64,000 nucleotides of DNA. Source: an uncultured Desulfobacteraceae bacterium. GTDB taxonomy: Bacteria > Desulfobacterota > DSM-4660 > Desulfatiglandales > HGW-15. The stretch spans positions 6,220-70,219 of the forward strand of contig CAZGIZ010000001.1 in assembly GCA_964526655.1 (NCBI GenBank). Reading direction: 5' to 3'. A model generated the notes under the pieces. It was not told the DNA's origin. It did no database searches and worked only from the letters and a program-made list of their open reading frames with translations. This document shows positions 6,196-29,912 of this stretch, piece after piece (position 1 is the first letter of the stretch; each line of letters starts with the position of its first letter). The translations under genes were made by a program, and so were the position numbers.

Positions 6196-6199
6196 GTGG

Positions 6200-12473: not shown

Positions 12474-12500
12474 TCTTATTTTGCGGAAGGGAAGCATATC

Positions 12501-14548: not shown

Positions 14549-14908
14549 ATGTCAAAGCCACATTCTTATCCACATGTAAAAGCACTAGAAAATCTAATTG
14601 TTAATAGAGAGGATATCTGTATTTGCGGGATTATTTTGACCGAAGTGCTCAAAGGAATAAAAAAAGACAATGAATTTAGACGCACTCGGGATTTATTTAG
14701 TTCCTTAATTTTTTTGCCGATGCGGTACTCTTCTTTTTTACGATCAGCGGAGATCTATCGTAAACTTCGACGGAAAGGTATTACGATAAGAAAATCTTTG
14801 GATTGTATGATTGCCTCTATTGCTATTGAAAATGAAATCCCGCTTCTTCATAATGATAAAGATTTCTTACCAATTGAAAAAAGCTTCGGTTTAAAAAAAT
14901 ATAAATAG
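14549..14908 (+). pseudogene. PIN-domain (VapC-like) toxin gene, 5'-truncated
   Basis: 119-aa. Matches VapC from the central ..LTEVL.G.. segment to the C-terminal LHNDKDF. The N-terminal LDTN strand carrying the first catalytic Asp is missing. An in-frame stop lies at 14459-14461, with no alternative start and no upstream antitoxin ORF. Confidence 0.5.
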
Positions 14909-16010
14909 ACGAAGATAATCGAGTAGCTTGTGATTCGGGGTCAGACCACGGCAAGTAACTCATCAGGCTACGCCTTCGGCTACGACCCGACAGGCCGATG
15001 CCATAAGAGAGAATTCTTGATCAAATTCTCAAAGGAGAGGTATCTGCGATGGCTGTACCGGGGCGGAAAGCGCTTAACCGGTCTACCCTGACGTGAATGA
15101 AGTAGTAGTCATTAGGCTTTTGGGAAGAATGGCAACATTGTCAAAATCCCCACATGTCAAGGGGCGGTCAGGGATGAATCGGAAATAGAGGTTCTGTTAG
15201 GCCCGGGTTTGGACTCGTTAGATTAAGGGAAACCCTGGCCGGGGAGTCTCCTTTACAACGCAGTGAGCAGTACCGCGATTTTTCAGAGGCATTATGAATT
15301 GGTGGCCCAGGACATAGCCCGTTCTTGATGTACGATCCGGTACGCGACATGCAAAAAGCGATTTATGAGGATGTCCGGGCCCAGTTCGGCAGCTTGAGGT
15401 TAGCACTCTTGTGGCTGCATTCGTTCGAGGAGCCCTTTCTTGACGCTGAGGAGATGGATGCTTTGGGAAGGAGGACGGACTTCATAGTAGAAGGCACCCG
15501 GTTCACGGGGGCGCTCTGCTGTCTTGTGTTGAAAAAAATTGAGTAGAATAAATATCTCCAGATCCTGCTCAAGCCGAGAAACCAAGATGTTCGCATCTCA
15601 AATCAAATTATTCGTTATAGAGCATCCATAAATATATCATTGATCATGGAGAACTGGAGATTGTTGAATTTAAAAATCTCCAATTCTCAGCAGTGACATA
15701 TTGATTGACATAATAAATCTATAGGATTTCATGAATTCTCTCTCAGGTAGCCGCCGCATTTTTTTCAAGATGCGATTGATGAATATCTTAGAGAAATAGT
15801 CTATTTTCTTCCCTGACTATTCACCCACAATCAAGGAAAATGAGGATACCCTCCCCCACAGATCGGGGTTTTTTTCTTTGGAATTTTGTGATATGTTCTC
15901 ATAAAAAACTGGCCTGTTTTATAGTGCTTATGTATAAGGATATTCTGTCGTATTTTGAGAGACATCTAAAGGAACAGGGCCTTCGCCATGGGATAACACT
16001 GGTACTACTA

Positions 16011-17963
16011 ATGAATCATTCAGCGCGGATTCATATCTTCGTTCTGCTTATCGTTTTCCTCCAGCTTATCTACCTGCTCATACCCCCCCATTCCTGGAGC
16101 AGGGATGCCCTCAAAGTGGGCGTGCTTCGGTCCAATCCCCCTTTTTCTTTCATTGATAAGAATAACAATATTCTCAGGGGGTTTAGCGTGGACATAGCAA
16201 AACTGGTAGTAGGGACAATGGGATTCAACGCCGAGTTCTACGCCATGAACGGTTCGCGTTTGATGAAGGCCTTGAGCGATGGAAGGATCGATCTTATAAG
16301 CGGTATTATGATTAGCCCTGAAACTGCAAAAGATATCAATCTCATTGAAACGGGGATCCATGTCGAAAGAAAGTTCTTTGTGAGTCACGAATGCCTGACC
16401 ATCACCTGCTATAAAGACCTCCCCGGACATACCCTGGCCTTAGAGCGGGGACGGGATGTTTCGAGATACCTACCTTCCTTAGGAAAGGTAAGTTTTCTGG
16501 AAACGGGCTCCCAGGAAGAAGCGCTCACTTTCCTGAACTCAGGCCAGGCCCAGGTATATATATCGGATTGCAGTGTTTCCTCATTGTATATCATCCAGAA
16601 AAAGGGCCTGCAGAATATCAAAGAAGTAGGAATTCCCATAGAAACGGTTCCATTGGCTCTGGCCGTAAAAAAGGGGAACACGGAACTCCTCACCTCCCTG
16701 AGTGTTGCCTTTGGAAAAATTCTGGAAAACAAGAGTTACGATACCTTGTACAAGAAATGGATAGGCCGGGATATCCGATTCAATAAGTGGAGCGAATATA
16801 TCAGGTTTGTCCTGGCGGCCGTAGGGTTGACTCTCTTTGTTTTGCTTGGATTTATTTTCTGGAATCGCATGCTCAAGAGGAAGGTCCTTCATATAACCAG
16901 TGACCTCCAAAGATCGGAGCAAAAGTACAGGGACCTGATTGAATCATCTCCCGATATGATACATCTGATCTCGCCGGCCGGTGAGGTAAGACATGCAAAC
17001 AAGATTGCCTTATTGCACCTGGGGTATAGCGAAAACGAAATAACCACCCTTAGGATGCATGACCTGGTGTTGTCCCACCAGAAAGAGGATATGACGGAGT
17101 TTATAGATAAGGTCTTTCAAGCGGGATATTCAAATAAGGAATTCACTTTCAAGGCCAAGGAAGGAGATAAGGTCCATGTTGAGATGGTGGCGACCCTCGT
17201 GAAGGGATCTAACCGTTCCGAGGACCTCGCTTGCTGCTTCTCAAGGGATCTGACCGAACGAAAGCGGATAGAGGAGGATCTTATTCATTCGGACCGGCTG
17301 GCGATCATGGGGCAGATGGCGGCAGGAATCGCCCATGAAATCAATAATCCCCTGGGTATTATTTTGACCAACGCGGAAGATTTGCTCCACCATGAGCTCA
17401 AAGAGGAAGACTCCCATGAAAGTCTCAAATCCATAGAGAGAAATGCGCTCAGGGCGGGAAAAATCATCGAGGATCTGCTTACCTTCACACGTCCCACCCC
17501 TCCGGAAGTCACACCCATCGACCTTATACAGCTTATAGACAGCAGCCTGCTTTTCTTGAAACAAAGGCTCAAACAGAAGAGAATAAAGATCGAAAGATTC
17601 TATCCGGATGATATGATCTTGTTCAACGGCGATGAGAATTCGATCCAGCAATTATTGATAAACCTGATTTTAAACGCCATTCAGGCGATCAAAATAGAAG
17701 GCCGGATAACGATCCGTGTCAATACCCATGGAAGGAAAGATAACAGGCATGTGATCCTCAAAGTTGAGGATAACGGGATAGGGATTCCCGAAAAGGATCT
17801 TCCGAAAGTCTTTGATCCTTTTTTCACCTCACGAAAAGAAAAAGGGTTCGGACTGGGTCTATTTACTTCGAGAATTATTGTGGAAAAACATCACGGCTCC
17901 CTCACTGCGCAATCCAGTCCGGGAGAAGGGACTATAATGACTATAGAATTGCCCATAGGATAG
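16011..17963 (+). CDS. sensor histidine kinase with periplasmic SBP-type-3 domain, TM, PAS, HisKA and HATPase domains
   Basis: The ORF is open from 15840. I prefer ATG 16011 (MNHSARIHIFVLL.. signal anchor). Periplasmic LKVGVL..PPFSF..GFSVD.. solute-binding fold, H-box AHEINNPLG, N-box LILNAIQA, G-boxes EDNGIGIP and GFGLGL. Confidence 0.85.
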   Translation: MNHSARIHIFVLLIVFLQLIYLLIPPHSWSRDALKVGVLRSNPPFSFIDKNNNILRGFSVDIAKLVVGTMGFNAEFYAMNGSRLMKALSDGRIDLISGIMISPETAKDINLIETGIHVERKFFVSHECLTITCYKDLPGHTLALERGRDVSRYLPSLGKVSFLETGSQEEALTFLNSGQAQVYISDCSVSSLYIIQKKGLQNIKEVGIPIETVPLALAVKKGNTELLTSLSVAFGKILENKSYDTLYKKWIGRDIRFNKWSEYIRFVLAAVGLTLFVLLGFIFWNRMLKRKVLHITSDLQRSEQKYRDLIESSPDMIHLISPAGEVRHANKIALLHLGYSENEITTLRMHDLVLSHQKEDMTEFIDKVFQAGYSNKEFTFKAKEGDKVHVEMVATLVKGSNRSEDLACCFSRDLTERKRIEEDLIHSDRLAIMGQMAAGIAHEINNPLGIILTNAEDLLHHELKEEDSHESLKSIERNALRAGKIIEDLLTFTRPTPPEVTPIDLIQLIDSSLLFLKQRLKQKRIKIERFYPDDMILFNGDENSIQQLLINLILNAIQAIKIEGRITIRVNTHGRKDNRHVILKVEDNGIGIPEKDLPKVFDPFFTSRKEKGFGLGLFTSRIIVEKHHGSLTAQSSPGEGTIMTIELPIG

Positions 17964-17977
17964 AAGGAGAATGCTCC

Positions 17978-19345
17978 GTGAATGAAAGAATACTTATCGT
18001 CGATGACGAGCTTGAAATGCTGCAAGTTTTGAGCCGTCTTTTCTCGAGAAAAGGATACGAAGTCCATATTGCGGAAACCGGCGAGGAAGGGTGGAAGGCC
18101 ATAGAGGAGACCATGTTCGATCTTGTAATATCCGATATGGCCATGGAAGATTTGGATGGCCTCGAACTCCTGGACCGGGTTCGCTCAACGGATGCGACGA
18201 TCCCATTCATTATCATTACCGGAGTAGGCACCATCGAAAGTGCTGTCCAGGCCATCAAGATGGGTGCATTTCACTACATCACCAAACCTTTTAAGAACAG
18301 GGACATCGAGATCCTCGCCCAAAGGGCCCTGGAATACGGCAAGTTGCACCGAAAGCTCGATAATCTGCGTCTGCATGATGAAGATGGAAGTCTGCCTCAG
18401 ATGCTCATTGGAGCGAGCAAGAGCATGCATGACCTTATGCATTGCGTAGAAAAGGTCTCCGATTCCCTGGCACCCGTCCTGATTCAGGGTGAGACCGGAA
18501 CGGGTAAGTCTCTCCTGGCTGAAAAAATTCACGAGAATAGTTCTCGAAGAGAAAAGCCATTTCTTACGATTGACTGTGGCGCGCTCACCGAAACCCTGCT
18601 CGAGAGCGAGTTGTTCGGTCATGTGAGAGGGGCTTTTACCGGGGCCTTACGCGCCAAAAGAGGTCTTCTTGAAGAGACGCAAGGGGGAACTATCTTTCTT
18701 GATGAGATCTGTGAAATAACCCCTCCGACCCAGGTAAAGCTTCTCAGGGCCATTCAAGAAGGCGAGATAAAGCCTGTGGGCGGCAACAATACAGTCCGGA
18801 TTGATGTTCGATTCATCTCGGCCACAAGCCGTAACCTGGAAATGGAGGTTCAAATAGGTAACTTCCGTGAAGAACTCTACTACCGCCTCGCGGTTGTACC
18901 TCTTCACTTACCCCCACTGCGCGAACGGCGGGAAGACATACCCCTCCTTATCGATTTTTTTTTGAAAAAGTTTTGCAAGAGGTACAAAAAAAGGATTAGC
19001 CTCATCAAACCGGAGGTGTTGGAGATGTTTCTCCAATCTCTCTGGAAAGGCAACATCCGTGAATTGGCAAATATCCTGGAAAGGGGTGTGCTCCTTGCGG
19101 AAAACGAGGTCATTTCGATGGATTGTATCATGAGCACATATCCTCACGAGCGCCTCACCAAGAAACCGGGGCAGGAAAGTCCGGCATTACCCCTGAGACA
19201 GGTGGTTGAAGAAGCAGAGAAGAAGGCAATCATCCAGGCCCTTAAAAATGCCAACAACAACCGAAGTCAGACAGCCCGCCTCCTCGGGATCAGCCGGAGG
19301 GCACTCTACGATAAAATCGCAGCCTACAATCTGATGAAGGTTTGA
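17978..19345 (+). CDS. sigma-54-dependent response regulator (NtrC family: REC + AAA+ + Fis-type HTH)
   Basis: 455-aa. REC domain (ILIVDDE..DLVISDMAMEDLDG), Walker A GETGTGKS, sigma-54 contact motif GAFTGA, C-terminal HTH NRSQTARLLGISRRALYDKI. Confidence 0.9.
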   Translation: MNERILIVDDELEMLQVLSRLFSRKGYEVHIAETGEEGWKAIEETMFDLVISDMAMEDLDGLELLDRVRSTDATIPFIIITGVGTIESAVQAIKMGAFHYITKPFKNRDIEILAQRALEYGKLHRKLDNLRLHDEDGSLPQMLIGASKSMHDLMHCVEKVSDSLAPVLIQGETGTGKSLLAEKIHENSSRREKPFLTIDCGALTETLLESELFGHVRGAFTGALRAKRGLLEETQGGTIFLDEICEITPPTQVKLLRAIQEGEIKPVGGNNTVRIDVRFISATSRNLEMEVQIGNFREELYYRLAVVPLHLPPLRERREDIPLLIDFFLKKFCKRYKKRISLIKPEVLEMFLQSLWKGNIRELANILERGVLLAENEVISMDCIMSTYPHERLTKKPGQESPALPLRQVVEEAEKKAIIQALKNANNNRSQTARLLGISRRALYDKIAAYNLMKV

Positions 19346-19702: not shown

Positions 19703-19718
19703 TGGCACAAAGGTTGCT
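19703..19718 (+). promoter_or_regulatory. sigma-54 (-24/-12) promoter
   Basis: TGGCAC-aaagg-TTGCT matches the consensus TGGCAC-N5-TTGCW exactly (GG 19704-05, GC 19716-17). It lies about 90 nt upstream of ATG 19809 and about 360 nt downstream of the activator gene. Confidence 0.7.
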
Positions 19719-19808: not shown

Positions 19809-20303
19809 ATGAGAATGAAAAAAACGACAGTGGTCTTCGCAATCCTGGCGATGATAATGGGCTTTGCATTCGCCCGGGCGGCGACGGGAGCGGATCTCAT
19901 CATCGTGGCCAGTAAGGCAACCCAGGAAGCTTCACAAAACTGGGTTGGATTTTTAAAGACAAGTGAGGTTCCCTTTAAGCTTGTTACGCCGCAGGAATTT
20001 GCAAATTATAAACAGCAGAAATACCTTTTTTTCCTGGGCGGCGTAGATGAAACGGAGGGCATCGCTGGTCCTGTGAAAGAGGCCCTCACCAAGGACGAGT
20101 TTCAGTGGGTCAGCCAGCCGGGCAATGGTAAATTGTATGTTAAATCCGATATATGGGCACCCGGGCAACGTATCGTTATTGTTGCAGGATCAGATTTAAA
20201 AGCTTCGGAAGAGGCCAGGAAAACCACGAGGGAGCAGTGGTTTGCAATACTCACCGATTGGTTTGACCTCGAACAAGGGCCTGGTGGACTCCATACCTAT
20301 TAG
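19809..20303 (+). CDS. exported hypothetical protein (orphan)
   Basis: 164-aa. GGAGG lies 9 nt upstream of the start. Signal peptide MRMKKTTVVFAILAMIMGFAFARA. No family recognised. Confidence 0.6.
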   Translation: MRMKKTTVVFAILAMIMGFAFARAATGADLIIVASKATQEASQNWVGFLKTSEVPFKLVTPQEFANYKQQKYLFFLGGVDETEGIAGPVKEALTKDEFQWVSQPGNGKLYVKSDIWAPGQRIVIVAGSDLKASEEARKTTREQWFAILTDWFDLEQGPGGLHTY

Positions 20304-20400: not shown

Positions 20401-21807
20401 TTGATTATGAAAAAGTTAATCTTTCAAATGATATTGTATGCATCCTTGTTTATTCCTGGAGGGCTCTTTGCCTTTCCGACGGTTTTTCCGCACGGCACCA
20501 CGATCTATAAGCCTGAAAAGTGTTACAGCGGTTTTACCATCCTGACGACCGAGGGCTATCAGACTATCCTCATCGACATGAACGGCAATGTGGTCCACCA
20601 TTGGGCAAATTTGTGCGATGAGGAACACCCCGCCAAACTCCTTCCGGGCGGATATGCCATGGGCGCCACGGGGGGGAGGGGGCGGTTATTCGGCAATGAG
20701 GACTCCAATGATCTTTCAGTGGTGGATTGGAATGGAAATATCGTCTGGACCTATAAAAAGGCCGGTGTTCATCATGACTTCGAGAGGGAGGGCAACCCTG
20801 TGGGATACTATGTCCCCGGTATGGATTCATACGTTGACAAGGGTAAGACCCTGATCCTTTCTCACAAAATCGTAAAAAATAAAAAAATCAGTGATAAACC
20901 CCTTTATGACGATTTCATTTTTGAGGTGGACTACAGCGGGAAGATCCTTTTTGAATGGCTGGCCAGCGAATACATTGATGAAATGGGATTTGATCGACTA
21001 GCCAGGATCGTCATGTACCGGTATCCAAACTATACCATGACACGGACACCCGGCGTTGTTGGGGGAGACTGGATCCATGTAAACACGGCTTCCTGGCTTG
21101 GCCCTAATAAATGGTATGATCAGGGGGACGATCGTTTCCATCCCGACAACATCATCTATGACGGCCGTCAAACCAATACCACCGGCATTATCGACAGGAA
21201 GACCGGTAAGCTCGTCTGGCACATGGGTCCTGATTTTCTTCAGAGCCGTGAATTGATGAAGCTGGGTGTCACCGTCGGCCTCCACCATGCGCATATGATT
21301 CCCAAGGGTCTGCCCGGAGATGGAAATATCATCCTTTTCGACAATGGGGGTTATGCGGGATTCGGTGAACCCAATCAGGCCTCCCCTTACGGCATGAATA
21401 ACGTCAGGAGGGACTATTCGAGGGTGATAGAATTCAACCCCGTAACCCTTGAGATGGTATGGGAGTACGACGCCCATAAAGCCGGGTATAGGGACATGTA
21501 CAAGTTCTATAGCGACTACGTCAGCTCTGCCCAGCGCCTGCCGAACGGAAATACCCTGATTGTAGAAGGCGCCTTGGGACGGATTTTTGAGGTAACTCCC
21601 CAATACGAGACGGTCTGGGAGTACGTCAGCCCCTATTACAACGAGAAGGAACACTTTAACCTGGTCTATCGTGCCTACAGGGTGCCCTATGATTATGTTC
21701 CCCAGTTGCAGAAGCCTGTGGAAAAGGCTGTGATTCCGCCTGAAAATTCTACCCTGAGACTGAAAGATCTGACCACGGCACCACCTGCTACACCTTTAGG
21801 GAAGTGA
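20401..21807 (+). CDS. arylsulfotransferase (ASST)-like exported beta-propeller protein
   Basis: 468-aa. AAGGAGG RBS and signal peptide. The N-terminal pattern Y.PEK.Y.G.T.L......T.LIDM.GNVVH.W and C-terminal RLPNGNTLI....GRIFEVT....VWEY are as I recall for ASST-family (PF05935/PF14269-type) proteins. Confidence 0.6.
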   Translation: MIMKKLIFQMILYASLFIPGGLFAFPTVFPHGTTIYKPEKCYSGFTILTTEGYQTILIDMNGNVVHHWANLCDEEHPAKLLPGGYAMGATGGRGRLFGNEDSNDLSVVDWNGNIVWTYKKAGVHHDFEREGNPVGYYVPGMDSYVDKGKTLILSHKIVKNKKISDKPLYDDFIFEVDYSGKILFEWLASEYIDEMGFDRLARIVMYRYPNYTMTRTPGVVGGDWIHVNTASWLGPNKWYDQGDDRFHPDNIIYDGRQTNTTGIIDRKTGKLVWHMGPDFLQSRELMKLGVTVGLHHAHMIPKGLPGDGNIILFDNGGYAGFGEPNQASPYGMNNVRRDYSRVIEFNPVTLEMVWEYDAHKAGYRDMYKFYSDYVSSAQRLPNGNTLIVEGALGRIFEVTPQYETVWEYVSPYYNEKEHFNLVYRAYRVPYDYVPQLQKPVEKAVIPPENSTLRLKDLTTAPPATPLGK

Positions 21808-21913: not shown

Positions 21914-22309
21914 ATGGGGGTAAAAGAAATGGCATACAGAAAGTTTTTTTATGTATTTTTAACTGTAATCATTTTCGGCCTGGTTTTGGCTTTCGCCGGG
22001 ACTGCCGGTGCGCAGCATGAAGGCGGGCTTGGCGTCAAAAAAATTCCCTTGAATATCGCAACTGTCGATCAGCTGATGAAGATTGACGGCATGACAGAAG
22101 AACTTGCAAAGGCGATCGTGGAATACCGGGAAAAATCGGGCTTTTTTAAAAAGCCTGAAGACCTTCTCAAAGTCCCGGGCGTGACAAAGGAAATTTATGA
22201 AAAACTCAAACCTCAGCAAGGTGTCGAAGGGGATATCTTTTGTGTCCCCAAGGAAGGCACGGAAGACGAGGAAGAGGAAGAACCTTTGTTGAGTCCTTCC
22301 AAGTGTTAG
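21914..22309 (+). CDS. exported ComEA-type helix-hairpin-helix protein with acidic tail and C-terminal Cys
   Basis: 131-aa (alternative start ATG 21929 gives MAYRKFFYVFL.. signal peptide). LNIATVDQLMKIDGMTEELAKAIVEYREKSGFFKKPEDLLKVPGVTKEIYEKLKP matches the ComEA C-terminal HhH domain. Ends ..EDEEEEEPLLSPSKC. Confidence 0.65.
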   Translation: MGVKEMAYRKFFYVFLTVIIFGLVLAFAGTAGAQHEGGLGVKKIPLNIATVDQLMKIDGMTEELAKAIVEYREKSGFFKKPEDLLKVPGVTKEIYEKLKPQQGVEGDIFCVPKEGTEDEEEEEPLLSPSKC

Positions 22310-22320
22310 GGGATCCAAGG

Positions 22321-22344
22321 GCATTTCGCAGGCGAAAGCTTTTT
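22321..22344 (+). terminator. weak intrinsic terminator/attenuator after the first three genes
   Basis: GCATTTCG-cagg-CGAAAGC stem (one mismatch) followed by TTTTT, 12 nt after the stop of the HhH gene. Confidence 0.35.
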
Positions 22345-22456
22345 CCCTCTTAAATTTCGACTGTTTCCCCTTCCCCGGATTCCTTGGGAGGCGCAGTGTG
22401 TCACCGCGGGCAGAACAGGCGACCTCGGGATGACAAACCCCTTTAAGGAGCCAAGA

Positions 22457-25324
22457 ATGTCGGAAAAAATTCATGGAAATAACGAGACGAACCTATTTCT
22501 CATTATCGGTCTCGTGATAGTGTTCGTTTTGTACGGCCCCTCTTTTTCATCCGGAGAAGAAAATCCAAGAGGCTTGGATCCATCACGGGAAGCCACCTAT
22601 ATCCCGGAATTAGGCGGGATCTTGAACAAGACCTATCACAATCAATATGGACAACAAAGAGACCTTGCCGAATGTCTCGTACTACGAGGGAGCAAAATAA
22701 AGGATGGGAAAGCTTACGTAGATGCCGGCGGGCTCTATTATGCCTCCGATACTTCCTATGATGCAAGGCCCTTTATGCGTGATCCCTTTCTCATTCTGGG
22801 AGAGCATGCTTATCTCCTCCGCCTCACGCCTGAGAAGGTTGTAAAAAAAAATATCCGGATCAAAAAAGGCGAAAAGGCCCTGGTGGATCCTTCCGGATAC
22901 CGGATCTGGTACGATTTCGCAACGGATCATTATGAAAAACCCTATGGTGAATTCGCTTTCATAGCGCCCTCAGGCGGATGGCCCATGGAATGGTCCGTGT
23001 CCACTTCCTTCCCTTCACCAACAGAGGTAAGGAATCTGAATCTCAAGGGAGGGATCCACCCACAGCTAAAACCCTACTTCAACAGCAATGCCCATATTTA
23101 CGGCGCCACGAAGATCATCGCAGAAAAAGTGACTTCGGAGGAGGCGGTATTTTCAACCGTGGAGTACCCGGCCATCAAAGAGGCCGTCTTTTCCATGGAC
23201 AGGCCCTGGGTGGTGGACATCCTCCAGGAGAGTTTCCGCTGGTATGGAAACAAGAGGATCTATGCCTTCAGAAAAGAAAAAGGCATCCTAGTGGAAGTCC
23301 GCGACTGGAAGGGAAAAAAGGTGCTGGCCTCCAAACTCATGAAACCCCCTACACAGCAGGAATACAAAGTGGCCCACCAGGATGAGATGTGTCTGACGCG
23401 GCTCGACCTGGATCTGCACATCGAATTGATCGTGGACCCCTCCTGGTACAAGGGTTCCGACTATGCACCCTGGGTCAATGAAGTCCCCTATGGGTGGAAG
23501 GAAGGGACCGTTGCCTTCGCCATCTATGATGACCTTATAAAGGTGGAAGACGGGAAACCCTGGCCGCATGACAATAGGTACATTGTACGCCTGGAACCGA
23601 ACCTGGAGACCGGAATGCTCAAGAGATTGGTCCTGGAAAACCGGGACCCTTTTATCCTGAGCAATGAAAACCAGAGCTATGACGGTCCCATAAAGATTTC
23701 CGAAGTCTGGGACCGAAAATACTTCACCGTGGTCGCGAAGGATTTCGAGAAAGATGTCGCGCACACCTCCTACGTACGGGACTCTTTTTTCCGGCGAACC
23801 GATAACCTCGTCCTCTGGAAATCGGGCCGGGAAAACATCGATTTTTTTATCGGGATGAGCCCTCTGGTCGTTTCGGTGATGGAAGACACTTTTCTCATGC
23901 GTCTGGCCGATCCATCCTATGGCGTTCCGGTGGTAAAGTCCAGATTCACCTCCTACCCGAGGGTCGTCCCCAACGCCAAATGGTTCGCCCCGGACCAGAC
24001 CGCCGCCTTTGTCCCCAAAATGAAAGGTTTCGTACGTAAGTATGTAAGAAACAGGAAAGATCACCGGCTTGTTGCCTCGGAAACCCTTGTGATCAGACAA
24101 AGCTATGTGGACTACAGAAAAGGAAAGATCATCATTCCTCCTGGAGGGCTTTACTACAGTACCCGAAACAGCAGGAACATCCGTCCGGGCGAACCCCTTG
24201 TCGTCCTCGGGAAAGACGCCTACCTGTTGAGGTTCAAGAGTTATCTGGTGGTTAAGAGAAACTTCCGGCTCGATCTCTGGAAGGAATATCCCATGGGGGA
24301 CGGGAATCCCCTTTTCTGGCAGGACGAACCCCTCGGCGATGGGAGTAAGGCCATTCGATACATGGGATCCTCGATTCTTTGGGGAAGGCCTGTTGGCCTG
24401 GTTCGAATAACCAAATACTCCGGGAATAACTGGGGCGCAAACCTTCTGGTTGCGGACGGATTTCACGGATACGGCGATATGGCCGAGGTGGACGCTCAGA
24501 AGGCCGGTGTTTCCCCTCAGGACTTTAACCTGTTCATACCAAATGAATTCGGCGATGGAGCGACCTATCTGATTCCGAAATTTATAGCACCTGATTTTGT
24601 TGAGGTTGAAGAAATGGGCACACCCGGTATGGATTCCTTTACGATTACCTATGAAGAGCCAAAAAGGGTCGTCCTTGAACCGGGGCAGGAGACCCCTGTG
24701 GGGAAATACCGGCTGCAGGTTAAGGAAGTAAACAAAGAGACCAAGAGGGTGACCCTCGTCCTCTTGAACGCCTCGGGCGAGACCGTGGCCGAAAAGGCCC
24801 TCGGACCGATTGACGAAGACCTCTATGGGACAATGCCCCAGTATGCCCCTTCCCAGGAAAAGGTCATCATGACCTACGAAGATATTCAGGTGGATCTGGA
24901 ACTTCCCTTTGATTTTGAGAAAAAGAAGGTCGCCCTCTGGATGGCGACGGGTGCAAGGACATTCGATCGGGATACCCCCTGGCCCGATGACACACGCTTT
25001 TTGATCAGGCCGGATGTCTGCGGCCACTGCTACCAGCTCAATGAGATTATCCTCGACAACAAGGATCCCATCATTCTGGACGGGAGGAACAACACCTTCA
25101 CGGGGCTGGACGGGTATTTCAAGATTGTCATAGATGATTTTGACGGGGAAGCGATCAATGCCTGGCATATCGAAGATCAATACGGGAAGACAACGCCGAA
25201 CCTGGCGGAATATCCAAGGGATAATCTCGACGTGATGGTCGGTGTCAACGGGACCACGGAGAGCTTCTTGCGAAAAACACTGCTTGAAAGACTTGCTTAC
25301 AGGGAAATTTGGAGACTGAAATAA
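22457..25324 (+). CDS. large membrane-anchored/exported protein with internal tandem duplication (orphan)
   Basis: The ORF is open from 22430. ATG 22457 follows AAGGAG by 6 nt. N-terminal hydrophobic anchor LFLIIGLVIVFVLYG. The two halves share GGLYY..(R)P....LG..AYLLR and PWP.D.R...R...L.N.DP.IL motifs at a constant offset of about 472 residues. Confidence 0.8.
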   Translation: MSEKIHGNNETNLFLIIGLVIVFVLYGPSFSSGEENPRGLDPSREATYIPELGGILNKTYHNQYGQQRDLAECLVLRGSKIKDGKAYVDAGGLYYASDTSYDARPFMRDPFLILGEHAYLLRLTPEKVVKKNIRIKKGEKALVDPSGYRIWYDFATDHYEKPYGEFAFIAPSGGWPMEWSVSTSFPSPTEVRNLNLKGGIHPQLKPYFNSNAHIYGATKIIAEKVTSEEAVFSTVEYPAIKEAVFSMDRPWVVDILQESFRWYGNKRIYAFRKEKGILVEVRDWKGKKVLASKLMKPPTQQEYKVAHQDEMCLTRLDLDLHIELIVDPSWYKGSDYAPWVNEVPYGWKEGTVAFAIYDDLIKVEDGKPWPHDNRYIVRLEPNLETGMLKRLVLENRDPFILSNENQSYDGPIKISEVWDRKYFTVVAKDFEKDVAHTSYVRDSFFRRTDNLVLWKSGRENIDFFIGMSPLVVSVMEDTFLMRLADPSYGVPVVKSRFTSYPRVVPNAKWFAPDQTAAFVPKMKGFVRKYVRNRKDHRLVASETLVIRQSYVDYRKGKIIIPPGGLYYSTRNSRNIRPGEPLVVLGKDAYLLRFKSYLVVKRNFRLDLWKEYPMGDGNPLFWQDEPLGDGSKAIRYMGSSILWGRPVGLVRITKYSGNNWGANLLVADGFHGYGDMAEVDAQKAGVSPQDFNLFIPNEFGDGATYLIPKFIAPDFVEVEEMGTPGMDSFTITYEEPKRVVLEPGQETPVGKYRLQVKEVNKETKRVTLVLLNASGETVAEKALGPIDEDLYGTMPQYAPSQEKVIMTYEDIQVDLELPFDFEKKKVALWMATGARTFDRDTPWPDDTRFLIRPDVCGHCYQLNEIILDNKDPIILDGRNNTFTGLDGYFKIVIDDFDGEAINAWHIEDQYGKTTPNLAEYPRDNLDVMVGVNGTTESFLRKTLLERLAYREIWRLK

Positions 25325-25364
25325 AGCAGTATCGTTCACTTGAGAAAAAAGAGGGAGAGAGTAA

Positions 25365-26525
25365 ATGACTACCGATGCAATTGCAGTGTCAAAGGGACTA
25401 AGCTTTAAAAAATCTTCCATGTGGAGTACCCTGCCCGGTTTTCATGAAAGCTACCCCGGGCTTTTGGCCCTCATTATCATAGCCGTTTTCTGCGGACTTC
25501 CAGGACTTTCATGGCCCATAACCATCCAGCATTTTTTGGAATATATTGATGAAGTTCTTCCTCCCATTTATGGAAAAGGGCTTTTTACCGACCTGCTGCA
25601 TTTTAATTATGTGGTGATCAGCCTGGCTGCGGGAATTCTGATCAGAAACGTCGCCGGTGTGCCGAAAAGTTGGGAAAAGGGCCTAAGCTACTATTCAGTC
25701 TTTCTGCATGCAGCCATTATTATGCTGGGTTCCCAGTACCTATTGAGAGACATGGTTAAGCTGGGCAGTCTCACTGTCATCATCATGGTCGTCTTTGTCT
25801 TCGGATCCTGTTCCCTCTTAATATGGCTGGGAAGACTTTTCAGACTGGAAGATTCTCTCTGTGGGATCCTGGCGGCAGGTTTCGGGATGTGCGGCGTAAC
25901 AGCTGCTGTAGCCACCGCCCCCATGGTGCGTGCCAGAAGCGAACAGATCACCTATGCCATCGCCGCTTCCGTCTCATTTGGTATCTTCTGTCTGGTCGGC
26001 CTGCCAGCCCTCGGACGGCTTTTGGAGATCACACAGAACTCCTTCGGCGTGGTCAGTGCAACAGGGGTTCCCAATTCCGCACAGGTCATTGCCACGGGGT
26101 TTATGTACGGGTTTGAAGCGGGGAAGGTCGCGGGCTTCGTGAACATCGGGCGGATAGTCCTCATACCGGCGGGGGCATTGTTCATCTATTTCTTTACGAT
26201 GACGCGTGATGTCCTGGCCTCGGAAAAGATCAGCATATTGCAAACGGTGAAGGAAAAATTCCCCATTTATGTTTTAGGGTTCATCATTGTTTGGGGAGCG
26301 AACTGCCTTCACCTTTTCCCGAAACCGGCGGTATTCGCCATGGAAAAAGTGATGATCTGGTTTTTCAGCCTCTCCTTTGTGGGCCTTGGGCTCCAGACCA
26401 AACTATCGGATGTCAGGAAGGCCGGAATTAAGGGCGCCATTGTAGGCTATATGGCAGGCGCCATCAAACTGATATTTGCTCTCATCGTCATCGTTTTCCT
26501 GATGAGACAGGGTTTCTTGAGATGA
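25365..26525 (+). CDS. YeiH/UPF0324 (putative sulfate exporter, PSE) family membrane protein
   Basis: 386-aa polytopic protein. LAAGFGMCGVTAAVATAPMVRA and GLGLQTKLSDVRKAGIKG align with E. coli YeiH IGAGSSICGAAAVLATEPVVKA and ALGLTTHVSALKKAGAKP. Confidence 0.7.
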   Translation: MTTDAIAVSKGLSFKKSSMWSTLPGFHESYPGLLALIIIAVFCGLPGLSWPITIQHFLEYIDEVLPPIYGKGLFTDLLHFNYVVISLAAGILIRNVAGVPKSWEKGLSYYSVFLHAAIIMLGSQYLLRDMVKLGSLTVIIMVVFVFGSCSLLIWLGRLFRLEDSLCGILAAGFGMCGVTAAVATAPMVRARSEQITYAIAASVSFGIFCLVGLPALGRLLEITQNSFGVVSATGVPNSAQVIATGFMYGFEAGKVAGFVNIGRIVLIPAGALFIYFFTMTRDVLASEKISILQTVKEKFPIYVLGFIIVWGANCLHLFPKPAVFAMEKVMIWFFSLSFVGLGLQTKLSDVRKAGIKGAIVGYMAGAIKLIFALIVIVFLMRQGFLR

Positions 26526-26539: not shown

Positions 26540-26704
26540 ATGGCGCAAGATTCAAAAGATAAACTTGAAGAAGAGAGAGGAAAAATAAAGGCGCAAACAG
26601 AAGCTCAAATGATGCGATCGCGAGTCAATGACTACGTGGCCATCATTTTGGCCCTCGGCACGGTCTTTCTCCTCTGGATTCTACAGTTGATGGGGTTTTA
26701 TTGA
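26540..26704 (+). CDS. 54-aa micro-protein with C-terminal TM helix (not in the ORF track)
   Basis: My own translation: MAQDSKDKLEEERGKIKAQTEAQMMRSRVNDYVAIILALGTVFLLWILQLMGFY. GAGGAAGGA RBS lies about 7 nt upstream. The stop TGA 26702-04 lies inside the ORF-track TTG-26701 frame and 2 nt upstream of the preferred ATG 26707. Confidence 0.35.
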   Translation: MAQDSKDKLEEERGKIKAQTEAQMMRSRVNDYVAIILALGTVFLLWILQLMGFY

Positions 26705-26706
26705 TT

Positions 26707-27228
26707 ATGGCCGAAAAAGTCCTTCTGCTTTTGGGCATCGCAGACGCGGAAGAAGCCGGCATATACATCAAAAAGGAATCCCATCGCCGTGACGTTAGGG
26801 TAAAGGGCGAGGGCAGACAGCATGAGGAAAATGCGGTCGAGGAGGCCTTCAACTATGCTCGATCGAAGTCAAAATCCGTTGTCGCCGTTCAGGTCCTTTA
26901 CTCCGACCTGTACCATTATGGACATACTGACCTCCTTCTCCCGGGACCCGGGAAAAAACGTTTCCTACTCTACGTCAGGGATGAGGTGCTGAAACAGGCC
27001 ATGGGAAGGGAAAAGGCCCTCCGGGAAAGGGCGCGGAGGCAAGGCATAGCCCTTGAGGTAAGATCGGTTGAATCGCAGGATCCCGCTTCAACCGCCGTTG
27101 AAGAGGCGAAAAAGGGCTACGATGCGATCTTTTTGCCGAAGGAGAGGAAAAGACGATTCCCCCTCTTGAAAAGGAACGTTGAGCAACAATTGCGGAAGCA
27201 GGTACTGACCCCCATCATAAGCTGCTGA
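26707..27228 (+). CDS. universal-stress-protein-like (USP fold) protein lacking the ATP motif
   Basis: About 173 aa (the track starts at TTG 26701). The layout VLLLLG...VVAVQVLY...EVRSVESQDPASTAVEEAKKGYDAIFLP resembles UspA-fold proteins. No G-x2-G-x9-G(S/T) motif is present. Confidence 0.45.
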   Translation: MAEKVLLLLGIADAEEAGIYIKKESHRRDVRVKGEGRQHEENAVEEAFNYARSKSKSVVAVQVLYSDLYHYGHTDLLLPGPGKKRFLLYVRDEVLKQAMGREKALRERARRQGIALEVRSVESQDPASTAVEEAKKGYDAIFLPKERKRRFPLLKRNVEQQLRKQVLTPIISC

Positions 27229-27330
27229 TGAAAAGAAGGGTAGTCCCTTTTGCCCAGGGCGGGTCACCGCACCCGCTCAATCGGGTTGATGCGTTTCTCG
27301 ACCCTGCGGTGCTCGTTGATTGGAAGAAAA

Positions 27331-29493
27331 ATGCCGAAAATCAGTCGTCGTGATTTTATGAAGATGGGTGCCCTGGCCGTGGGCGGAGGGCTGCTATCAC
27401 CCGCTTTGGGCAAGGAAAAACTGATATTCGGCGCCCCCCTGCCCTCGAAATATGTGGATCGGGAAGTGGACAGTTGCTGTCAATTCTGTCAAGTGCGCTG
27501 TACGACGAAGGTCCAGATCAAAAGTGACCGGGTTGTGAACGTCTACGGAAATCCGGAAAATTTCTGGACCGGGGGCGCCATGTGTGCCAAGGGAAAGTCC
27601 ATGGTGGAATTGACCTATAGCCCCTATCGCATTCTGCATCCCCTCCTGCGTGAAGGCGGTGGCTGGAAGCGAATATCCTATCCGCAAGCCCTTAATATGG
27701 TGGCCGAGCGAATCCTCAAGGTTAAAAAAGATTTCCCCGATGACTATGCCCACAGGGTCGCGTTATTTGAACCCCTGTGGGAGTCCAGGGAAAGTGAACT
27801 GGCAGCAGAGGCGGCTTTTCGGCTGGCAGGGTTTCCCGATCTTTGTTCCCCGGGTGACGGCTGCATCGGAAATTCCGCCACTGCGCTTAGTATTTGCCTG
27901 GGCAGCCCGATCTCCCCGACCACTTTAGATGAAGTTCTTAATGCCGAAAAGGTTGTCCTGTTCGGGGCGAACATCGCCGAAATGTATCCGGTCTATGTTC
28001 GCTGGCTCCATCAGGCACGTGAAAAGGGGGTGGAATTGATCTATCTCGATCCTCGCATTACCCCGACGGCCAACTTTTGTAACAAACAGTATCAACCAAG
28101 ACCCGGAACCGATGGCGCCCTGGTTCTTGGAATCATTCGGTTCCTAATAAAGGAAGACCTCTATAACCACGACTATGTCACCTTACACGTAAACGGCTTT
28201 GATGATCTGGCAAAGGCGGCCGACCCCTACACCCCTGAAAGGACGGCCGAAATCACGGGCCTGCCCGTGAAGGAGGTGGTGTTATTGGCCGGGGACCTTG
28301 GCAGGAGCACAAAGACCCTCCTCTGGATGGGAGGCTCTATCTCCCGTTATACCAATGCTATTCAGACGGTTCGCGCCATGATTGCATTGCAGGCAATCAC
28401 GGGAAACCTTTCCGGCCCGGGCAAAGGGATCATGAACGTCCAGGGGGGCAAGCCCGGGGGGGGTGAAAAATTCGAAGAGACCTACCGGTATCCCAAGCTT
28501 TCCTATAGCCTGAATTTCAGAAAGGTGCTCTACAACATGAAACGCGGCATGCTCGACGTGCTTCTTCTGAACTCCAGTTACCGTCGCTACCCGGATGCAA
28601 ACAGGGTCAAAGAGGCTATTTCAAACGTCGGTTTCGTTGTATACCGCGGGTTTTTCATGGACGAGGAGGCGAAACTGGCCCACCTGATCATTCCAGGGAC
28701 CATGGTCTTCGAGAGTGAAGGATCTCAATACGGGGCTCAGCGCCAAGTAGTATGGCGCAACAGGGCCATTCCGAGACCCGGGGAGACGGTTGAAGACTGG
28801 CGCTTCTATTCCGACCTGGGCAAAAAGATATGCGGCGGGGCGTACCCCCCCGTGAACAGCGCCGAAGAAATCTATGAACTGTTCAGAAAATATGCACATA
28901 CCTGGAATGGACTCACCCTGGAACGCTTGAAAAAGACCCCGACAGGGCTCACCTGGCCCTGGCCGTCGACGGATAGACCGGAAGCGAGAGGGACCCTTTA
29001 CCCCGGTGACCGCTTCCTGACCCAGGATGGGAAGGTCGAGCTTCGCTCGCCGGTCCTTGGGCTTATCCGGTGGACTCAGCCGAAGGGGAGCCCCGAAGGT
29101 AACGGCAAAGGAAAGGAGGGATTTCCCCTGATATTTACGCAGGGTAAAGTGGCTTGGCACTGGCAGCATACCTACACCAACTGGTCCTCTTTTATGGGGC
29201 AGTTCTCCAAAGGAAATTATGTCCAGGTCCATCCGGAAACCATTCAGGATCTTCAGATCAAGGACGGCGACTGGGTCTACCTGGAGACGCAGGTAAACAA
29301 AATCAAGGCCAGGGTACAAATATCGGAAGCCATTTTACCCGGTGTCATCTGGACGCCATCGCATCCCGAACCCGATAGCCCCATTCAGGGGAATGCTGGT
29401 CAGTCCATCAACACCATCATCCCCAATTATTGGGATAAGGTCTCGGCCCAGTTCAACGGGTTTGGATGCAGGCTGACCAAAGCGAATATATAA
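27331..29493 (+). CDS. Tat-exported molybdopterin (bis-MGD) oxidoreductase catalytic subunit, Psr/Phs/Arr-like
   Basis: The ORF is open from TTG 27250. ATG 27331 gives MPKISRRDFMKMGALAVGGGLL, a twin-arginine signal. N-terminal FeS motif CCQFCQVRC...CAKG. MopB-family collinearity (GANIAE..P, LIYLDPR.T.TA, PRPGTDGAL). Confidence 0.85.
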   Translation: MPKISRRDFMKMGALAVGGGLLSPALGKEKLIFGAPLPSKYVDREVDSCCQFCQVRCTTKVQIKSDRVVNVYGNPENFWTGGAMCAKGKSMVELTYSPYRILHPLLREGGGWKRISYPQALNMVAERILKVKKDFPDDYAHRVALFEPLWESRESELAAEAAFRLAGFPDLCSPGDGCIGNSATALSICLGSPISPTTLDEVLNAEKVVLFGANIAEMYPVYVRWLHQAREKGVELIYLDPRITPTANFCNKQYQPRPGTDGALVLGIIRFLIKEDLYNHDYVTLHVNGFDDLAKAADPYTPERTAEITGLPVKEVVLLAGDLGRSTKTLLWMGGSISRYTNAIQTVRAMIALQAITGNLSGPGKGIMNVQGGKPGGGEKFEETYRYPKLSYSLNFRKVLYNMKRGMLDVLLLNSSYRRYPDANRVKEAISNVGFVVYRGFFMDEEAKLAHLIIPGTMVFESEGSQYGAQRQVVWRNRAIPRPGETVEDWRFYSDLGKKICGGAYPPVNSAEEIYELFRKYAHTWNGLTLERLKKTPTGLTWPWPSTDRPEARGTLYPGDRFLTQDGKVELRSPVLGLIRWTQPKGSPEGNGKGKEGFPLIFTQGKVAWHWQHTYTNWSSFMGQFSKGNYVQVHPETIQDLQIKDGDWVYLETQVNKIKARVQISEAILPGVIWTPSHPEPDSPIQGNAGQSINTIIPNYWDKVSAQFNGFGCRLTKANI

Positions 29494-29567: not shown

Positions 29568-29912
29568 ATGAAAAAACAATATACTTTGACGATCTTGAGT
29601 TTCAGAACATTAACCTGTTTCTTCCTTTTTATTTTTTCCCTGCTCGCCCTCGGGCCAGCCGGCCTTGCGCAGGAGCAAAAACTCAAAGGCAAGACGGTCA
29701 ATATTAACACGGCCACGCTGGAGCAACTGGAGAAGGTCCCCCTCATGACCAAGGAACTGGCTGAGGGCATCATCAACTATCGCGAAGAAAATGGTGATTT
29801 TCAAGTTTTGGAAGAGCTGCTTCAGGTCCCGGGATTTACACGTGAATTGCTCAGAAAGATGAAGCCCTTCCTGCTGCTGGAAGGCTTGGGCGGCGAGGAA
29901 TGTACCTGCTGA
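29568..29912 (+). CDS. exported ComEA-type helix-hairpin-helix protein ending in Cys-Thr-Cys
   Basis: 114-aa. AAGGAGG RBS and signal peptide ..LLALGPAGLAQE. VNINTATLEQLEKVPLMTKELAEGIINYREENGDFQVLEELLQVPGFTRELLRKMKP matches the HhH domain. Ends GGEECTC. Confidence 0.65.
   Translation: MKKQYTLTILSFRTLTCFFLFIFSLLALGPAGLAQEQKLKGKTVNINTATLEQLEKVPLMTKELAEGIINYREENGDFQVLEELLQVPGFTRELLRKMKPFLLLEGLGGEECTC

Follow-up and report, generated by a model that had tools for sequence, protein, structure and literature searches.

Two exported ComEA-like helix-hairpin-helix proteins with invariant C-terminal cysteine tails in a conserved enzyme cluster of uncultured Desulfobacterota

Two exported HhH proteins and their C-terminal tails

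We analysed a stretch of 64,000 nucleotides (hereafter the window) of contig CAZGIZ010000001.1 from an uncultured Desulfobacteraceae bacterium. Its plus strand encodes two small exported helix-hairpin-helix (HhH) proteins, HhH-1 and HhH-2, within a cluster of genes for exported and membrane proteins. A previous sequence-only reading had assigned both a signal peptide, a ComEA-like tandem HhH domain with altered hairpins and a cysteine at or next to the C-terminus, and had proposed that they serve periplasmic enzymes instead of binding DNA. The two open reading frames (ORFs), the signal peptides and the tandem HhH domains were recovered exactly as described when we checked the ORFs and searched Pfam HHH_3, and the hairpins read the same again (IDGMTEE/VPGVTKE in HhH-1 and VPLMTKE/VPGFTRE in HhH-2). 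The features of the two genes are:

21914-22309, plus strand: HhH-1, 131 amino acids (aa), ending ...EDEEEEEPLLSPSKC; stop codon TAG at 22307-22309
22040-22216, plus strand: HHH_3 domain of HhH-1 (aa 43-101), preceded by a signal peptide (aa 1-33) and a mature N-terminus Q-HEGGLG
22304-22306, plus strand: terminal Cys codon of HhH-1; the domain is followed by an acidic linker and the tail ...EEPLLSPSKC
29568-29912, plus strand: HhH-2, 114 aa, ending ...GGEECTC; stop codon TGA at 29910-29912
29688-29873, plus strand: HHH_3 domain of HhH-2 (aa 41-102), preceded by a signal peptide (aa 1-34)
29901-29903 and 29907-29909, plus strand: the two Cys codons of the HhH-2 tail, LLLEGLGGEECTC

Against a gathering score of 27 bits for Pfam HHH_3 (PF12836), HhH-1 scored 66.8 bits (E 1.9e-18) and HhH-2 69.3 bits (E 2.9e-19). 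A hidden Markov model (HMM) scan of all window ORFs found no third HhH protein. The N-termini show the basic n-region and hydrophobic core of Sec-type signal peptides, with cleavage predicted from sequence at ...LAFAGTAGA|QHEGG in HhH-1 and ...LALGPAGLA|QEQK in HhH-2. In the AlphaFold2 (AF2) model of HhH-2 (predicted local distance difference test, pLDDT, 82.5 overall and 93-97 in the core), the helix at residues 12-27 falls on the signal peptide. Two minus-strand ORFs, 23288-25420 (710 aa) and 21959-22474 (171 aa), overlap the gene for the 964-aa protein that follows HhH-1 (big964) and HhH-1 itself, respectively; they are most likely non-coding shadows of strongly conserved plus-strand genes.

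We retrieved 214 homologues of HhH-1 and 395 of HhH-2, and tail counts refer to the 120 homologues listed for each family. All 120 listed HhH-1 homologues end in [SA]PSKC (112 SPSKC, 8 APSKC), and all 120 listed HhH-2 homologues end in C-x-C (111 CTC, 6 CSC, 3 other). Conservation of the terminal Cys, which the sequence-only reading had put forward as a check on its proposal, was thus found in 240 of 240 sequences. The tail consensus is ...E-E-P-x-L-[SA]-P-S-K-C for HhH-1, where an acidic run precedes PSKC (of the last 25 residues, a median of 9 are acidic), and ...G-G-x-x-C-[TS]-C for HhH-2, where FLLLEG[IL]GG precedes C-x-C. Because only 138 of 3744 mechanical ORFs from the same loci (3.7%) end in Cys, the pattern lies far beyond chance. 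The internal Cys of HhH-1 is kept in 105 of the 120 listed homologues and is missing from one whole sub-family; by this sequence comparison it is dispensable.

The stop codons that follow PSKC are mixed (TAA 32, TGA 31, TAG 21), and the terminal Cys is therefore the true C-terminus with a free carboxylate. Selenocysteine read-through past this Cys, as in the GCUG tail of TrxR, was considered and ruled out on the mixed stops and the unconserved downstream frames. Tyr sulfation at the aromatic residue of the HhH-1 motif EGDxYC was also ruled out: this residue varies between Y and F, with F in the window, and has no counterpart in the second of the two gene arrangements described below (architecture B).

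The tail [DE]n-E-P-x-L-x-P-S-K-C also ends two proteins without an HhH domain, encoded at homologous loci (numbered with the prefix L):

L025 3308-3595, plus strand: 95-aa low-complexity Lys/Glu-rich secreted protein of the Tectomicrobia locus, ending ...EEEPSLRPSKC (...EEEEEPSLRPSKC)
L072 1469-1900, plus strand: monohaem cytochrome c with CSSCH, ending EDEPSLKPSKC

Both lie upstream of a gene for an enzyme of the alkaline phosphatase (AP) superfamily that is exported by the twin-arginine translocation (TAT) system. Two further HhH families carry other ends. HhH-3 proteins (99-105 aa) finish in ...LDGCNC, and HhH-4 proteins (L043 6956-7282, minus strand; L030 2922-3275, minus strand; L045 457-786, plus strand) in ...E-[VT]-K-L-P-R-Y. 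A 499-aa enzyme resembling aryl sulfotransferases (ASST-like; L030 4900-6399, minus strand) has the same C-terminal extension as HhH-4, ...GEVKLPRY, and so presents a tethered terminal Tyr. The sequence-only reading had treated the HhH domain as the key element, and this did not survive the comparison. Because the PSKC tail also sits on a non-HhH protein and a cytochrome c, and Tyr ends occur on sister proteins, the tail and not the HhH domain appears to be the conserved functional unit. The system seems to centre on small proteins whose C-terminal extension ends in a nucleophile, thiol or phenol. As expected of a swinging arm, the invariant Cys sits beyond the folded domain, on an extension of the C-terminus, in divergent orthologues and on different scaffolds.

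We compared the folded domain with ComEA. The HhH-2 model superimposes on Geobacillus ComEA (PDB 8dss, Foldseek) with a root-mean-square deviation (rmsd) of 1.0 A over 63 residues and 46% identity, a sequence search of the PDB matches ComEA at E 1.4e-15, and both groups share a two-HhH domain without a connector helix. Neither protein reaches the cut-off of the NCBIfam comEA model TIGR01259 (49.4 bits for HhH-1 and 55.8 for HhH-2, cut-off 152.35). For the ComEA HhH-repeat model TIGR00426 (cut-off 53.1), HhH-1 lies below at 48.9 bits and HhH-2 marginally above at 56.0.

The best-conserved residue of ComEA is a Lys (K166 in Geobacillus ComEA-Gs, K164 in B. subtilis, K63 in V. cholerae); the K166A substitution abolished DNA binding of ComEA-Gs by electrophoretic mobility shift assay (EMSA), and the equivalent K164A lowered transformation of B. 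subtilis more than 100-fold (PMC9747964). We aligned 245 members of HhH-1, HhH-2 and HhH-3 with three ComEA controls. The position equivalent to K166 is L, I or M in 245 of 245 members and K in 3 of 3 controls. The second Gly is substituted in 236 of the 245 members in hairpin 1 and in all 245 in hairpin 2, the replacements being T, D, S or N, so that G-h-G becomes G-h-T, L-h-T or G-h-D/N. HhH-2 has also replaced the first Gly of hairpin 1 with L or M. The ComEA controls retain the glycine at each of these positions.

The orthologues are not scattered. Synteny holds across Desulfatiglandales, other Desulfobacterota and one Tectomicrobia metagenome-assembled genome (MAG), in more than 40 loci altogether, which answers the question of shared gene context that the sequence-only reading had raised, and the listed neighbourhoods of homologous loci contain no comEC, pilus or other competence genes. 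From these comparisons, HhH-1 and HhH-2 are very probably not competence DNA receptors but dedicated tail-bearing subunits of an enzyme system. Their names in public databases ("ComEA family DNA-binding" and "competence ComEA-like") are probably wrong, because the DNA-contact residues are missing and the genes lie within an enzyme operon. The earlier proposal that these are not DNA receptors is thus strengthened by the lost contact Lys, the invariant Cys and the conserved context; of the roles that it suggested, thiol carrier and docking subunit both still stand. Two observations weigh on the other side. Human EEPD1, the best match in the PDB by sequence, likewise has G-V-T hairpins, so the loss of the second Gly alone is no proof of lost nucleic-acid binding. 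Net charge and isoelectric point were dropped as a test of DNA binding, a canonical ComEA HhH domain (L024) being equally acidic.

The gene cluster in the window and in other loci

The genes and features that accompany HhH-1 and HhH-2 in the window are:

15840-17963, plus strand: sensor histidine kinase with periplasmic SBP_bac_3, PAS, HisKA and HATPase domains (Pfam); probable cluster regulator
17978-19345, plus strand: sigma-54-dependent response regulator with a GETGTGKS... motif; homologues have Response_reg, Sigma54_activat and HTH_8 domains; assigned with synteny
19703-19718, plus strand: putative sigma-54 -24/-12 box, TGGCACAAAGGTTGCT, ~90 bp 5' of s164 and 3' of the kinase/regulator pair
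19809-20303, plus strand: s164, small secreted protein ending ...GGLHTY, with a weak Pfam S_layer_C match
20401-21807, plus strand: ASST1, secreted ASST-like beta-propeller (PF05935 E 1.9e-22 and PF14269 E 1.3e-11, both above cut-off)
22430-25324, plus strand: big964, 964 aa, with a transmembrane (TM) helix at aa 18-35 and a large all-beta periplasmic part in two DUF1608/S-layer-like halves
25365-26525, plus strand: inner-membrane YeiH-family transporter (PF03601 E 1.2e-46), conserved in all loci
26540-26704, plus strand: 54-aa protein with one C-terminal TM helix, between the YeiH and Usp-like genes
26701-27228, plus strand: usp175, cytoplasmic Usp-like protein ending ...PIISC, with a weak Usp match
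27250-29493, plus strand: MopB, TAT-exported catalytic subunit of a molybdopterin oxidoreductase (Pfam)
29955-30587, plus strand: iron-sulfur (FeS) subunit with four clusters, TtrB/DsrO/NrfC-like (Fer4_11 E 3.4e-22), without a signal peptide of its own
30776-32140, plus strand: ASST2, second secreted ASST-like beta-propeller, which ends the cluster (PF05935 E 4.3e-23, PF14269 E 6.3e-16; synteny)

The putative sigma-54 box is the sole zero-mismatch match to TGGCAC-N5-TTGCW in the window, and homologous pairs of histidine kinase and sigma-54 response regulator lie upstream of the cluster in L008, L017, L025, L030, L043 and L070. From its sequence, the cluster would be under sigma-54 control.

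Among the secreted proteins, s164 always adjoins an ASST-like gene and ends in Tyr in 33 of 33 distinct homologues (...EGFHVY, ...GGLHTY, ...SMPMAY); a role as phenolic partner to the ASST-like enzymes is possible. ASST1 has invariant H124, H125, H295, R256 and R424, with H226 in at least 90% of sequences, and comparison of homologues found no invariant Cys in the ASST-like proteins. Their nearest solved relative is the sulfotransferase Cpz4 (9kf4, E 1.2e-9), which is PAPS-independent (PAPS, 3'-phosphoadenosine 5'-phosphosulfate).

The big964 protein has 245 homologues, 57-77% identical across lineages, and belongs to no Pfam family. Its AF2 model (pLDDT 79.5, predicted template modelling score 0.76) shows an N-terminal TM anchor and two all-beta halves, and the sole confident fold match is the DUF1608 domain of an M. 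acetivorans S-layer protein (3u2g, probability 1.00). Invariant residues include C82 and a C-G-H-C motif at aa 864-867; a thioredoxin-like site at this motif is unsupported, since the model places it in a beta-hairpin. The YeiH-family transporter scored 88.5 bits against TIGR00698 ("YeiH family putative sulfate export transporter"), under the cut-off of 232.6. Genes for 55-66-aa proteins take the place of the 54-aa ORF in L001-L006, L025 and L028, and homologues of usp175 have a terminal Cys in 11 of 13 loci, as also in L028, L074 and L039.

The true start of MopB is probably M28 (nucleotide 27331), just before the SRRDFMK motif, and its molybdenum ligand is likely the invariant Cys205 in D-x-C-I-G, as read from the sequence. 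The nearest PDB sequences are FdhF and Nap, all NCBIfam equivalogs lie below cut-off, and the partner subunits are Psr-like. We excluded a formate dehydrogenase: the ligand Cys is followed by Ile, the Sec/Cys-His pair is missing and the equivalog scores are far below cut-off. The FeS subunit, which is presumably co-exported with MopB, matches TtrB (159 bits) and DsrO (147 bits), both below cut-off.

Homologous clusters comprise 12-14 genes, are widespread in sediment, wetland and peat metagenomes and occur in two arrangements. Architecture A (the window and L002-L023) runs s164, ASST1, HhH-1 (PSKC), big964, YeiH, a ~55-aa TM protein, a Usp-like protein, the MopB module and ASST2. The MopB module is optional and consists of TAT-exported MopB, HhH-2 (CTC) and FeS, followed in some cases by NrfD/cytochrome or CytB. 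The core cluster occurs without MopB in L005-L007, L009, L011 and L016, and MopB-less loci have the divergent HhH-3 (...LDGCNC) next to a tetrahaem cytochrome c. The HhH-3 gene (L006 6815-7114, minus strand, with neighbours at 4167-6796, minus strand; the same in L005, L007, L009-L012 and L016) is co-transcribed with genes for the tetrahaem cytochrome c, a DUF1573 protein and two ~178-aa proteins, divergently from the main cluster. This operon is found mostly in loci without the MopB module; L010 holds both.

Architecture B (L025, L028, L043, L045, L074, L085 and others) begins with the histidine kinase and sigma-54 response regulator, followed after an interval by ASST, s164, in some loci HhH-4, an HhH protein ending ...EPSLKPSKC and the TAT-exported AP-superfamily enzyme. 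It continues with MopB, FeS, NrfD, an HhH protein ending ...GGKDCTC, big964, YeiH, a small TM protein and a Usp-like protein. The AP-superfamily enzyme (L025 3835-5901, plus strand, and 30 metagenome loci; ~65% identity; PF01663, weak PF00884) has an invariant G-L-D-S near the N-terminus and a later S-D-H, and in this architecture is always encoded directly 3' of a PSKC-tailed protein. A scan of metagenomes for the tail found 55 ORFs ending in PSKC, 54 of them with an HhH domain; the next gene encodes the AP-superfamily enzyme in 30 of the 55 and big964 in 9. In L028, the gene for the PSKC protein is flanked by those for an ASST and for an SdsA1-type alkylsulfatase (metallo-beta-lactamase fold plus Alkyl_sulf domains). 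CxC proteins are always encoded in a MopB-FeS(-NrfD/CytB) operon or beside a tetrahaem cytochrome. The PSKC type is thus genetically tied to enzymes of sulfuryl- or phosphoryl-transfer type, and the CxC type to redox modules. In nearly all loci an HhH gene lies directly 5' of big964, with an overlap of 4-7 nucleotides in L025, L028 and L074.

The hosts are uncultured: MAGs of Desulfatiglandales, Desulfatiglans and Desulfobacteraceae plus a single-amplified genome (SAG), Syntrophales and one Tectomicrobia MAG. The scan of genome contigs for hosts covered the architecture-A tail patterns. A profile search with HhH-2 against 1.84 billion representatives returned a top list filled by multi-repeat HHH_3 proteins, with the full-length CxC type making up ~6 representatives. 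Full-text literature searches found neither the proteins nor the cluster described. A different system is the "MOLY" sulfur-disproportionation cluster (PMC12998232), with MolyA/MolyB and a TorD chaperone and neither HhH nor ASST genes.

Some neighbouring genes are single or peripheral. Directly upstream of MopB in L001 is a signal-peptide-bearing single-domain rhodanese with a CRSGSRG loop, found in this locus only. A radical-SAM/SPASM gene (L002 18427-19644, minus strand), of anaerobic sulfatase-maturase type by domain content, stands at the cluster edge in L002-L004 and is absent from the window. In the window, a secreted lipoprotein of metallo-beta-lactamase fold (32238-33269, minus strand; signal ...LLSC) is convergent with ASST2 and just past it. 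Genes for DprA (36107-37261, plus strand; PF02481, E 1.5e-76), topoisomerase I (37297-39882, plus strand) and ATP sulfurylase (Sat; 40061-41251, plus strand) follow. The dprA gene lies ~4 kb downstream of the cluster, and unrelated genes in both orientations separate dprA-topA from it; at other loci the two are not syntenic. Genes upstream of the cluster encode a sugar-binding protein, a ROK regulator or kinase, xylose isomerase and xylulokinase (8492-14030) and a PIN-domain toxin (14549-14908); these are unrelated to the HhH proteins.

A possible sulfuryl relay and its alternatives

Our leading interpretation, to which we give slightly less than an even chance on the sequence evidence, is that HhH-1 and HhH-2 are swinging-arm thiol carriers with a sulfuryl cargo. 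The ComEA-derived (HhH)2 domain, without its DNA contacts, would be the scaffold. It would probably dock on the adjacently encoded, membrane-anchored big964, which we infer because the HhH gene directly precedes big964, with short overlaps, in nearly all loci. The working part would be the C-terminal tail, a nucleophile with a free alpha-carboxylate, as a single Cys in HhH-1 and Cys-x-Cys in HhH-2. C-terminal Cys arms are established covalent carriers (the GGCGG arm of SoxY, DsrC), S-sulfocysteine on a C-terminal tail is the intermediate of PAPS reductase, and ASST enzymes use a sulfo-histidine ping-pong mechanism to transfer onto phenolic acceptors.

The relay would have three steps. First, a sulfuryl group from organic sulfate esters would be moved to the terminal thiol of HhH-1 as S-sulfocysteine, by the ASST-like propellers in the window and by the AP-superfamily enzyme or alkylsulfatase in sister loci; the Tyr-ended s164 and HhH-4 may supply phenolic intermediates. 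Second, the CxC-tailed HhH-2 and the TAT-exported MopB/FeS(/NrfD) complex would release sulfite reductively and regenerate the thiols, with the CNC-tailed HhH-3 and the tetrahaem cytochrome in their place in MopB-less loci. The logic would be that of PAPS reductase with thioredoxin, or of thiosulfate reductase acting on R-S-SO3-. Third, the YeiH-family transporter would carry the sulfur oxyanion across the inner membrane. We favour sulfuryl (SO3) over persulfide transfer because the neighbours are ASST, AP-superfamily or sulfatase-like enzymes and an SdsA1-type alkylsulfatase, and because sister proteins end in Tyr. A sulfur theme recurs at these loci: ASST families above the Pfam cut-off, the YeiH family member, the rhodanese of L001 and Sat in the window. 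Uncultivated Desulfatiglans have been proposed to live on sulfate esters (PMC6129605). The complete periplasmic protein-tethered relay, from the ester sulfuryl to a C-terminal Tyr, then to Cys, then to sulfite released reductively through a CxC protein with a molybdoenzyme or cytochrome, is a more specific proposal and a doubtful one.

Several points weigh against a sulfuryl cargo and the relay. To our knowledge, no ASST enzyme has been described with a thiol acceptor, and we know of no precedent for a MopB enzyme acting on a protein-bound thiosulfonate or disulfide. The closest relatives of MopB by sequence are Fdh, Nap and Nas, and Phs and Psr are not among them. Residues 111-113 of HhH-2 form a short strand beside residues 40-42 in the AF2 model (pLDDT 69-82), and on this model the HhH-2 tail may be partly packed and not a free arm. 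The cluster in the window is also without a recognisable membrane quinol-oxidising subunit.

A partly ordered HhH-2 tail would suit the alternative that survives best, in which the proteins are docking or structural subunits only. Like the extrinsic PsbU, whose chains are among the fold matches, they would carry no cargo; their C-termini, with free carboxylate and Cys or Tyr side chain, possibly as disulfide or metal ligand, would plug into pockets of the enzymes or of big964 and so assemble a multi-enzyme complex. The four invariant C-terminal motifs (PSKC, CTC/CNC, KLPRY and xHxY) pair with different neighbour genes, as specific tags would, and the position of the HhH gene directly 5' of big964, overlapping it in three loci, suggests a stoichiometric complex. 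The invariant C82 and CGHC of big964 could form disulfides with the tails, and L001 encodes a secreted PDZ protein. Docking alone accounts poorly for the terminal residues, which are nucleophiles that fit the chemistry of the adjacent enzymes, as in the Tyr tail on the aryl-sulfotransferase-like enzyme itself. The long acidic linker of HhH-1 resembles a tether and not an interface, and the same tail recurs on three unrelated scaffolds. We regard a purely structural role as possible and on balance unlikely.

The terminal Cys might instead bring sulfane sulfur (S0) as persulfide to a Psr-like MopB for reduction to sulfide, in the manner of Sud with polysulfide reductase or SoxY with SoxCD. The MopB-FeS-NrfD or CytB architecture is that of PsrABC, PhsA is the third best NCBIfam match of MopB (210.9 bits), and the hosts are Desulfobacterota of sulfidic sediments. 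This leaves unexplained why 2-4 ASST-like genes are constantly present, as well as the AP-superfamily and alkylsulfatase genes, the Tyr-ended proteins and YeiH, and the core cluster also occurs without MopB (the six loci given above). The sequence-only reading had raised a Sud-type persulfide carrier. The neighbours and Tyr ends speak against that part and point to sulfuryl transfer; the rhodanese directly upstream of MopB keeps the sulfane option, although it is encoded in one locus only. We consider sulfane-sulfur carriage improbable.

A periplasmic thiol-disulfide relay is more improbable still. Here the CxC and Cys tails would shuttle redox equivalents to cysteines of the cluster enzymes, with MopB or cytochrome as electron sink or source, in the manner of DsbL/DsbI with E. 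coli AssT or of the C-terminal shuttle tails of Erv2 and TrxR. E. coli has an assT-dsbL-dsbI gene set, a C-terminal CxC is a known format for shuttle disulfides, and big964 offers an invariant CGHC. ASST is also found with dedicated Dsb systems elsewhere, as in the G. metallireducens cluster Gmet_1380-1384 (PMC2700814). Since the ASST-like proteins have no invariant Cys, there is no disulfide to make, and we disfavour a Dsb-like maturation system for ASST on this ground; in addition, the CGHC of big964 lies outside any thioredoxin fold, and the Tyr-ended proteins go unexplained.

It is very improbable that the tails act as metal or metalloid chaperones, binding As(III), Sb(III), Se, Cu(I) or Mo/W thio-species for delivery to or from MopB. 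Metallochaperones typically have vicinal or terminal Cys motifs and acidic runs, there are MopB enzymes that reduce arsenate, selenate and tellurate, and there are weak NCBIfam matches to ArrA and YnfE/F. All metalloid-reductase equivalogs score far below cut-off, however, the listed neighbourhoods contain no ars, cop or mod genes, and the ASST, sulfatase-type enzymes and Tyr tails find no explanation. Finally, genuine ComEA-type periplasmic DNA receptors, as NCBI and JGI annotate them, would fit the nearest fold and sequence relative, the narrow pass of HhH-2 at TIGR00426 and the dprA gene in the window, but the lost contact Lys and hairpin glycines, the wide failure at TIGR01259, the enzyme-operon context without comEC or pilus genes, the separation of dprA-topA from the cluster and the same tail on proteins without an HhH domain make this extremely improbable.

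ComEA-like names are attached to more than 600 public proteins (395 homologues of HhH-2 and 214 of HhH-1, with the architecture-B tails in addition). On our interpretation as swinging-arm carriers, or on that as adaptors, they would instead represent such proteins on a new scaffold within a previously undescribed cluster. The principle is new: a short invariant tail (Cys, Cys-x-Cys or Tyr) has been moved among unrelated scaffolds (HhH domain, low-complexity protein, cytochrome c and ASST enzyme), which takes the swinging-arm idea of SoxY and DsrC to a new fold and, possibly, to the chemistry of sulfuryl groups and phenols. If the sulfuryl relay is true, the tails would be a new portable kind of carrier module. 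Sediment Desulfobacterota would then have an electron acceptor for respiration without spending ATP to activate sulfate ("organosulfate respiration"). A large pool of sulfur consists of organic sulfate esters, and work cited in PMC6129605 proposes that a substantial part of sulfate reduction is fuelled by them where sediments are low in sulfate; that flux would be understood differently if a dedicated anaerobic pathway led from sulfate ester to sulfite.

Comparison with known systems

ComEA (PF12836; PDB 8dss, 8dfk, 2duy) comprises small exported proteins of the same fold as HhH-1 and HhH-2. The latter differ in their invariant Cys or CxC tail, lie in an enzyme operon and not with competence genes, and depart from ComEA in three defining features that we tested (the comEA model, the contact Lys and the G-h-G hairpins). 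PsbU, the 12-kDa protein of photosystem II, is likewise an exoplasmic, non-DNA-binding accessory subunit of HhH fold in a redox enzyme, and its second hairpin, P-G-L-T-E, resembles V-P-G-[IVM]-T-K of the HhH family. The PsbU precedent named by the sequence-only reading holds as an analogy at the level of fold (TM-scores of 0.40-0.52) and fails as homology: HhH-1 reaches 19.6 bits against PF06514 (cut-off 24.5), HhH-2 has no match, and ComEA is much closer to both. PsbU also lacks a terminal Cys tail, and its host and partner enzymes differ, the hosts here being Desulfobacterota and Tectomicrobia MAGs.

The working logic has closer parallels among sulfur carriers. SoxY is periplasmic and uses a single Cys on a Gly-flanked C-terminal arm to carry sulfur species, including Cys-S-SO3-, between enzymes that include the molybdoenzyme SoxCD. 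The HhH-2 tail G-G-x-x-C-T-C is similar to its GGCGG arm in principle, with a Gly-flanked C-terminal Cys. SoxY is Ig-like and needs SoxZ, whereas the proteins described here have an HhH fold with Cys as the very last residue; Pfam gave no SoxY or SoxZ match in HhH-1 or HhH-2, and the cluster contains no sox genes. DsrC/TusE has a Cys pair on a flexible C-terminal arm that is a co-substrate of the sulfur reductase DsrAB and is re-reduced by DsrMKJOP with a DsrO-type FeS protein, to which the sub-threshold DsrO match of the FeS subunit provides a parallel. DsrC is, by contrast, cytoplasmic and of unrelated fold, with a 10-residue Cys spacing and not C-x-C. Sud is a small periplasmic single-Cys protein that feeds the PsrABC-type MopB enzyme of Wolinella, polysulfide reductase. 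It is a rhodanese with its Cys in the active-site loop; the HhH Cys is C-terminal, and neither HhH-1 nor HhH-2 matched rhodanese (PF00581) in Pfam.

In CysH, the PAPS or adenosine 5'-phosphosulfate (APS) reductase, S-sulfocysteine forms when the Cys of the flexible C-terminal ECGLH tail takes over a sulfuryl group, and a dithiol partner frees sulfite. CysH differs in being cytoplasmic and nucleotide-activated, its tail belongs to the enzyme itself, and there is no homology. The cluster also resembles AssT-DsbL/DsbI and the ASST of G. metallireducens, which is encoded within a DsbA/B/E/D cluster (PMC2700814), in that a periplasmic ASST is encoded with dedicated small Cys proteins. Dsb partners are of thioredoxin fold and make a disulfide in ASST, whereas here the partners have an HhH fold with C-x-C or a single Cys at the C-terminus in place of CxxC, and the ASST-like proteins are without conserved Cys. 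By homology, HhH-1 and HhH-2 belong to the ComEA/HHH_3 superfamily; in working logic they are like SoxY, DsrC, Sud and PsbU, and they are members of none of these.

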